From IMG/VR virus record IMGVR_UViG_3300027566_000003: a DNA stretch of 64,000 nt. The stretch is one strand, 5' to 3'. Both the position numbers and the translations under genes were made by a program. The notes under the pieces were generated by a model. It did no database searches, had not been told where the DNA came from, and worked only from the letters and a program-made list of their open reading frames with translations. Positions within the stretch are counted from its first letter, which is position 1. Each line of letters begins with the position of its first letter. Source of the DNA: a virus. Its lineage: Duplodnaviria; Caudoviricetes. This document shows positions 52,757 to 53,258 of the stretch, one piece after another.

Positions 52757-53258
52757 TTATGTATTATCACTTGACCTAAAAATAACTACCATACTAGGAA
52801 ATGGTGCTGAATTTTTAGCATCACCAAACTTTAATCTTCCTTTGATAAATCTTATTTCAGCTTTACCATATATGTATTCATGAAAATATTTTGTATCTGT
52901 TCTAGCAGGTAACAAGCAAACTACCACAGTCTCTATTGGTGTGTGTGTGTGTGTGTGTGTGTGTGTGTGTGTGTGTGTGTGTGTGTGTGTGTGTGTGTGT
53001 GTGTGTGTGGCAAGTTTCATATGCTTTCTTAACCCATTTACCTATCTCTCTTCCGTAAGGTGGATTCATCCAACATACACCAAACCACTCTTGTTTTAAT
53101 CCATCTTGTTCAGGAGTAAAATATTTATCACACTTTGCATTGCTTTCAACCGCACAAACATCTAATTCAAAATCAAATTCTTCACTCATTTTATTAAAGA
53201 AATCTTGTGGAGTTGCCCACATATCAGTTTCGCTACTAAACATTACATCTGTATTCAT
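52757..53258 (-). pseudogene. phage Dam-like N6-adenine methyltransferase, out of frame at an internal (CA)35 tract
   Basis: WATPQDFF, LDVCA, WMNPPYG in the 5' frame; VVCLLPARTDT, GRLKFG, APFPS in the 3' frame. Confidence 0.88.
52939..53008. repeat. (GT)35 / (CA)35 simple sequence repeat
   Basis: Directly counted, 70 bp. Confidence 0.95.

Follow-up and report, generated by a model that had tools for sequence, protein, structure and literature searches.

A 71-base CA repeat as a probable ON/OFF switch within a phage adenine methyltransferase gene

Repeat-switched DNA methyltransferases are a well-studied bet-hedging device of bacterial pathogens. The enzymes switched by dinucleotide repeats include the Type III mod of Mycoplasma agalactiae, with a [GA]n tract, and the CpG methyltransferases of M. 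pulmonis and M. crocodyli, with poly(GA) tracts (PMC9465063), as well as mod1 of M. hyorhinis, which carries (AG)11 (PMC13736764). For phages, a 2025 review of phase variation (PMC11868660) attributes the demonstration that it occurs to a single study, that of Sorensen et al. 2021, which concerned poly-G tracts in genes for the receptor-binding proteins of Campylobacter phages. Homopolymer contingency loci have also been described in agt of T2 and rIIA of T4 (Gomez, Barrick and Waters, bioRxiv 10.1101/2025.10.21.683753), in a preprint whose text makes no mention of methyltransferases or dinucleotide repeats. Here we describe a CA repeat within a small Dam-type gene in a 64,000-nucleotide stretch of a tailed phage genome (IMG/VR record IMGVR_UViG_3300027566_000003), hereafter the window. 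The locus resembles the Mycoplasma CpG methyltransferases (PMC9465063) and the Type III and Type I "phasevarion" enzymes (PMC7383803) in that a non-triplet repeat in the ORF toggles the frame and both states occur naturally, and its tract lies mid-gene as in the Mycoplasma CpG methyltransferases. The bacterial enzymes are, however, chromosomal, whereas the window gene is a phage-borne small orphan Dam of the PF05869 family with no restriction partner in view, and its tract of 35 CA units, 71 bases long, is far longer than the tracts reported for those enzymes. The term phasevarion denotes the regulon under a phase-variable methyltransferase and we do not apply it to this locus.

The whole gene, a PF05869 Dam-type N6-adenine DNA methyltransferase, occupies positions 52757..53258 on the minus strand, as delimited by the Pfam and PHROG matches of its halves and by alignment with (CA)14 and (CA)8 alleles of related phages, and lies in two reading frames at the assembled length. 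The N-terminal half ORF (P0001, 118 aa; 52902..53258, minus strand) comprises residues 1-83 of Dam including the catalytic NPPY, then a His-Thr run and an 11-residue out-of-frame tail. The C-terminal half ORF (P0002, 87 aa; 52757..53020, minus strand), recognized by its Pfam and PHROG matches and by the conserved VVCLLPARTDT...FPSMVVIF, starts at an ATG 11 nt before the tract, within the Ala-Tyr-Glu codons, and translates the tract as (Thr-His)n. A Shine-Dalgarno-like AAGAGGA (53264..53270, minus strand), kept in all three DNA alleles, stands 6 nt before the ATG at 53258. P0001 matched positions 7-89 of the PF05869 profile (E 3e-23; 82.7 bits against a Pfam gathering cut-off of 28.1), while P0002 matched positions 88-146 with 21.6 bits, which taken alone is below the 28.1 cut-off but is contiguous with the match of the N-terminal half; phrog_111 (DNA methyltransferase) matches both. 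Because the two profile matches, 7-89 and 88-146, abut, the tract is located exactly at the junction of the two halves of one gene. The catalytic motif IV is present as NPPYG, and the invariant and nearly invariant columns of an alignment of 41 sequences are retained in the (CA)n lineage. The best matches among Dam proteins of cultured phages are 65-71% identical and come from Bacillus, Clostridium and Lactococcus phages. A megablast search of the 6-kb neighbourhood against GenBank phages gave no match, a scan of species genomes found neither a close relative nor a host, and a sequence search of the PDB found no relative of the PF05869 Dam family. Judged from its sequence, the gene encodes a small N6-adenine DNA methyltransferase that belongs to the "phage Dam" family, PF05869.

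The first-pass annotation had reported a dinucleotide repeat inside a Dam-like gene, and this was borne out: repeat scanning and reading of the sequence gave a perfect (CA)35C tract of 71 bases at 52939..53009 on the coding (minus) strand, which appears as (GT)35G on the plus strand, and the ORFs on both of its sides match PF05869. Tandem Repeats Finder returned a period-2 array at 52939-53009 with 35.5 copies and 100% matches. Since no other dinucleotide run of at least 6 units exists in the 64-kb window, whose G+C content is 28%, an origin of the tract by chance is unrealistic. Read in any frame, the tract encodes alternating His and Thr. When the gene was rebuilt in silico with n=28 to 41, the assembled n=35 proved out of frame, with a stop after residue 118, while n=30, 33, 36 and 39 each yielded a single continuous ORF with a (His-Thr) run. 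The rebuild confirmed the earlier statement that the halves are out of frame at n=35 and would be fused through a His-Thr linker at n=33 or 36; the single uninterrupted ORF of a PF05869 Dam is absent at the assembled n=35, a count that may err by one unit or more because the number of units in a 71-base repeat of period 2 is difficult to establish from an assembly, and is present at n=33 or 36. The tract has further attributes of a contingency locus: its unit is not a multiple of three, it lies mid-ORF, and its 35 units compare with published cut-offs of at least 5 (PMC7383803) or at least 6 units (PMC6321876) at which dinucleotide repeats are counted as phase-variable. A promoter and terminator scan found fewer promoter-like sites than in shuffled sequence.

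The presence of the tract in related phages had been proposed as a check, and a CA tract was indeed found at the same position in several of them. The closest N-terminal half is encoded by a 10.9-kb metagenome contig (L045), in which the gene carries (CA)14 and is out of frame; the contig shares the 15-base 5' flank of the tract with the window, and its N-half protein (P0003) is 99% identical to P0001 over residues 1-83. The contigs L001/L044 and L046, with 93% identity and the same 15-base 5' flank, carry (CA)8 in frame. Further in-frame alleles were found as proteins only, with (HT)3 in P0004 and P0126 and (HT)4 in P0123. These contigs share their gene order with the window across several genes for which identity is only 69-81%, and this synteny amid diverged neighbours indicates that the Dam locus is orthologous in related but diverged phages. 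We also compared the alleles expected at given repeat numbers with proteins on record. The L001 gene at n=8 gives P0124, which is found on 29 contigs; set to n=7, the same gene predicts letter for letter both P0125, a truncated N-half of 88 aa found on 4 contigs, and the C-half ORF P0131 (68 aa). The L045 gene at n=14 gives P0003 together with P0130. The letter-exact predictions at n=7 and n=8 imply that one lineage with identical flanking protein holds natural ON and OFF alleles differing by a single unit. This pair is the sole variation seen within a lineage, with n=7 deduced from protein identities and not from DNA, and the other DNA alleles come from diverged phages, so that most of the length variation is between lineages. 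Taken over the locus, n=35, 14 and 7 are OFF and n=8, (HT)3 and (HT)4 are ON, with the rest of the gene intact in each, as expected of polymorphism at a contingency locus. In-frame alleles with a long tract were not seen among these relatives, where natural ON alleles carry only 3-4 His-Thr pairs.

These alleles bear directly on the caution, voiced when the tract was first noticed, that an artefact must be excluded. Prokaryotic DNA seldom contains long and perfect dinucleotide tracts, and many long CA tracts in the viral collection stand at contig ends: our survey of (CA)20-or-longer tracts in IMG/VR returned at least 118 stretches, mostly in records of giant or eukaryotic viruses or at contig ends, and none of them encodes the PF05869 Dam of the window. 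Nevertheless, the tract studied here is internal and joins the gene halves at the exact profile junction, and its flanks are colinear with those of relatives that bear a CA tract at the exact position in independent assemblies. It is therefore extremely improbable that the tract, or most of its length, is an assembly or sequencing product missing from the phage DNA, and the caution can be answered in that sense. A chimeric join was rejected, both flanks being syntenic with relatives. As a separate observation, identity between window positions 52757-53258 and L045 positions 5063-5585 is mosaic, with 2 of 249 nt differing in the N-half and 9 of 165 in the C-half, against an identity of only 69-81% in the neighbouring genes; this pattern suggests recombination at or near the tract, or a recent exchange of the gene.

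Selection was estimated separately for the two halves. Between the window and L045, both of them out of frame, the C-half shows 9 nt differences with 1 aa change (dN/dS 0.03), and between the window and L001 it shows 15 nt differences with 2 aa changes (dN/dS 0.03); the C-half values range over 0.03-0.05 across the comparisons. For the N-half, all three pairs give 2-17 nt differences and 1-5 aa changes, with dN/dS of 0.14-0.19. The low dN/dS of the C-half, even between two OFF alleles, argues that the half beyond the frameshift is translated and selected. Such constraint fits a reversible switch; separate translation of the C-half appears less likely as its cause, and decay does not fit. A methylase killed by expansion of the repeat and now decaying could be imagined, since the gene is out of frame in the assembly and the phage has, besides Dam, three methyltransferases in the window (one C5 and two N6/N4) that might make it dispensable. 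Both halves are nonetheless intact and constrained, the C-half differing from that of L045 by 9 nt but only 1 aa, the gene has kept its ribosome-binding site and every catalytic and nearly invariant residue, and the tract is perfect, without the interruptions expected of a decaying repeat. With purifying selection on both halves (dN/dS 0.03-0.19) we rejected the pseudogene reading, to which we would assign only a very small chance.

The place of the repeat in the protein was examined in an alignment of 41 homologues and in a structural model. The His-Thr run aligns with a loop rich in gaps, whose length in repeat-free members is 0-8 residues. In the AlphaFold model of the natural ON allele P0124 (mean pLDDT 80), a helix at residues 72-84 is followed by the HT loop at 85-93 and a strand at 94-100, and the closest solved folds are those of N6-adenine methyltransferases, namely PCIF1/CAPAM and then RlmJ, METTL5, Dam and TaqI. 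By the usual topology of this fold, the helix-to-strand loop would lie away from the catalytic edge of the sheet, which makes insertions there plausible. The n=33 or 36 form would carry a His-Thr insert of 22-24 residues, and we infer that this long-loop form could be active.

A break in a surface loop between secondary-structure elements also raises the idea of a two-piece methylase, active once the N-half has joined a C-half whose translation starts at the ATG at 53020, in which case "minus one unit" would not be OFF and the locus would have three states. All three OFF (CA)n alleles (n=35, 14 and 7) are in the sole OFF frame in which this ATG opens an ORF into the C-half (P0002, P0130 and P0131, respectively). 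Three out of three is, however, a 1-in-8 event by chance, and a bias towards contraction by one unit explains it equally well. Both this ATG and the weak purine-rich stretch preceding it simply follow from the conserved codons for Lys-Lys-Ala-Tyr-Glu and occur in ON alleles too, a strong ribosome-binding site is absent before the internal ATG, and the poly-G lineages described below are frameshifted both ways. We hold a working split enzyme to be quite unlikely.

The same loop carries repeats elsewhere in the PF05869 family. We collected 130 distinct loci from viral, metagenome and genome collections; they are mutually related and were gathered by similarity, so that the following tally is indicative only. 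A G6-G10 or (CA)n repeat occupies the loop in 39 of the 130 loci, and 14 of these 39 (36%) are frameshifted, compared with 3 of the 91 repeat-free loci (3%; Fisher p 2e-6, kinship ignored). G9 was in frame in all 12 cases and G10 out of frame in all 5, G7 and G8 were mixed, and the poly-G lineages show frameshifts in both directions. An open and conserved C-half was present in 16 of 16 frameshifted repeat alleles. In P0023 and P0127-P0129, Glu-Arg repeats end or cross the protein at the same loop, so that (GA)n is apparently a third repeat type there, as deduced from these proteins. The poly-G alleles are like the window allele in family, in the loop, which links the helix "...KWVKKAYE" to the strand "VVCLLPARTD", in the scatter of ON and OFF states and in the intact C-half; they are unlike it in being homopolymers of 6-10 bases in phages of 51-58% G+C, compared with a 71-base CA tract at 28% G+C.

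A maximum-likelihood tree of the repeat-free N-terminal part, built on 79 columns and with many forks left open, places the core (CA)n alleles in one clade (support 97) and the (GA)n alleles near that clade in the same unresolved group. The well-supported branches require at least two separate origins of poly-G, both outside the dinucleotide group. Since they belong to separate clades on this tree, the poly-G and CA repeats arose independently. Two PHROG families show a related pattern, phrog_22740 (~99 aa) covering only the N-half of Dam and phrog_6083 (~94 aa) only the C-half; the members of both are probably whole genes caught in frameshifted switch states. In two other Dam homologues, P0247 and P0217, the ORFs open with an out-of-frame HTHT or RERE leader just upstream of NPPY, a hint that other lineages have a second site for repeats.

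The family-wide frequencies also weigh on a reading in which the phage mostly carries an in-frame length (33 or 36) and the gene is normally on, the repeat being a tolerated, drifting His-Thr linker and the OFF state an accident of assembly. The 71-base repeat is hard to size from short reads, the length of the loop is naturally variable, and the short-run in-frame alleles are the commonest, P0124 with its 29 contigs being the example. Yet OFF alleles recur independently, with n=14 in L045 and n=7 on 4 contigs, and across the family repeat-bearing copies are frameshifted ten times more often than repeat-free ones. Given the way microsatellites slip, moreover, so long a dinucleotide tract cannot stay stable, and changes of frame are inevitable, adaptive or not, which counts against a linker that merely drifts. 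We regard this reading as unlikely.

We favour the interpretation that the CA repeat in the helix-strand loop is a hypermutable, slippage-driven ON/OFF contingency switch on a phage methylase, and consider it probable. The first-pass annotation had inferred such a methylation switch; its structural part stood, with a Dam gene that is split at n=35 and restored at n=33 or 36, and gained support from alleles in both states, from selection on the C-half and from the scatter of the poly-G alleles, while high-rate reversible switching within a population, and any benefit of it including bet-hedging, are our extrapolation. Slipped-strand mispairing during replication of the phage DNA would add or remove CA units. 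From CA/GT tracts in replicating phage and bacterial DNA, a very high slippage rate is expected for 35 units. In the window allele, lengths with n = 0 mod 3, one in three, would give the full-length enzyme with a (His-Thr)n loop and the other two would truncate it; the assembled n=35 would be OFF, one unit short of ON. The phage population would then be a mix of methylase-ON and methylase-OFF genomes, and packaged DNA would be adenine-methylated or not according to the state of the infecting genome. The benefit could be hedging between hosts whose restriction enzymes are stopped by the methyl mark and hosts in which methylated DNA is the target of defence, or alternatively a lysogen in which methylation of the host chromosome varies.

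A more ambitious picture, which we put forward tentatively and think unlikely as a whole, would join several of the above elements. In it, the PF05869 helix-to-strand loop would be a convergent "socket" for hypermutable repeats (poly-G on two or more occasions, besides (CA)n and, it seems, (GA)n), and the (CA)n locus would have three states, namely the fused enzyme with its (His-Thr)n loop, a two-piece enzyme of the N-half and a C-half initiated internally in the "minus one unit" frame, and no enzyme at all. The length of the tract would set the switching rate, and with 35 units nearly every burst would be mixed.

The large ORFs of the window are all on the minus strand and their content is phage-like, including an NAD-dependent ligase, HNH nucleases, a tyrosine recombinase and MazF-like proteins. 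For a 449-aa protein encoded next to the recombinase, the only relatives are distant ones (25%), from Clostridium phage c-st/D-1873 and from the SPbeta/phi3T group. Of the four methyltransferases of the window only Dam bears a repeat. The C5-cytosine enzyme (50512-51912, minus strand; 466 aa) is matched by a 324-position Pfam profile over residues 4-463, which implies about 140 extra residues inside its domain. Over the whole window, several palindromic 4-mers are rarer than the Markov expectation (GCGC 0.24, CGCG 0.29, GGCC 0.46 and GATC 0.66, the last with 103 sites), which is consistent with restriction avoidance in a phage with four methyltransferases. Just downstream of Dam, an HNH endonuclease gene (51991-52727, minus strand) looks split, its Cys-rich N-terminal segment (~52596-52727) coming to a stop in a frame other than that of the 170-aa HNH ORF (51991-52503). 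Elsewhere, positions 32607-36728 and 46197-46985 (minus strand) hold an RNA-repair set, composed of a 1373-aa fusion of PhoH-like ATPase, polynucleotide kinase/phosphatase and RNA ligase and of a gene resembling tRNA-His guanylyltransferase (Thg1). A 528-aa protein at 57258-58844 (minus strand) contains an archaeo-eukaryotic primase domain of the "TOTE conflict system" type (PF22548, E 3.5e-11). One more tandem repeat, at 24250-24290, has the 10-base unit AATATGTATC in 4.1 copies with 96% matches and is intergenic, upstream of the ORF at 22861-24210.

A phage methylase with a 71-base microsatellite, taken together with independent repeats at this loop in many further phage lineages, suggests that randomisation of their own epigenetic mark is common among phages. 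If this is true, it bears on phages that face opposite defences, that is, restriction enzymes blocked by methylation and nucleases that require it, and on heterogeneity of methylation in lysogens. It also touches annotation, as Dam ORFs recorded as "split" or "truncated" for phages and metagenomes, among them the PHROG families of N-halves only or of C-halves only, are probably often switch states and not errors or dead genes.

No account of a phage methyltransferase switched by a dinucleotide microsatellite came up in our literature search; the coverage of the search is incomplete and this does not prove absence. A phage precedent among public sequences is met in Bordetella phages, whose GenBank records show bpm (bbp30) with a poly-G tract of G8 in BPP-1, G9 in BIP-1 and G10 in BMP-1 in genes that are ~99.8% identical. 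Like the window gene, bpm encodes a phage adenine methyltransferase with an intragenic repeat, the length of which differs among near-identical phages; unlike it, the enzyme has 251 aa and is annotated as a site-specific DNA-methyltransferase, and the repeat is a homopolymer at another position of the fold. The loci of Campylobacter phages, T2 and T4 are similar in that slippage-prone repeats in phage genes lead to mixed populations, which have been read as bet-hedging against host defence, but their repeats are homopolymers of at least 6 bases in receptor-binding, glucosyltransferase and rII genes. Compared with these systems, the novelty of the locus lies in the dinucleotide form and great length of its repeat and in the convergence on one loop, while the principle of the switch is already known.
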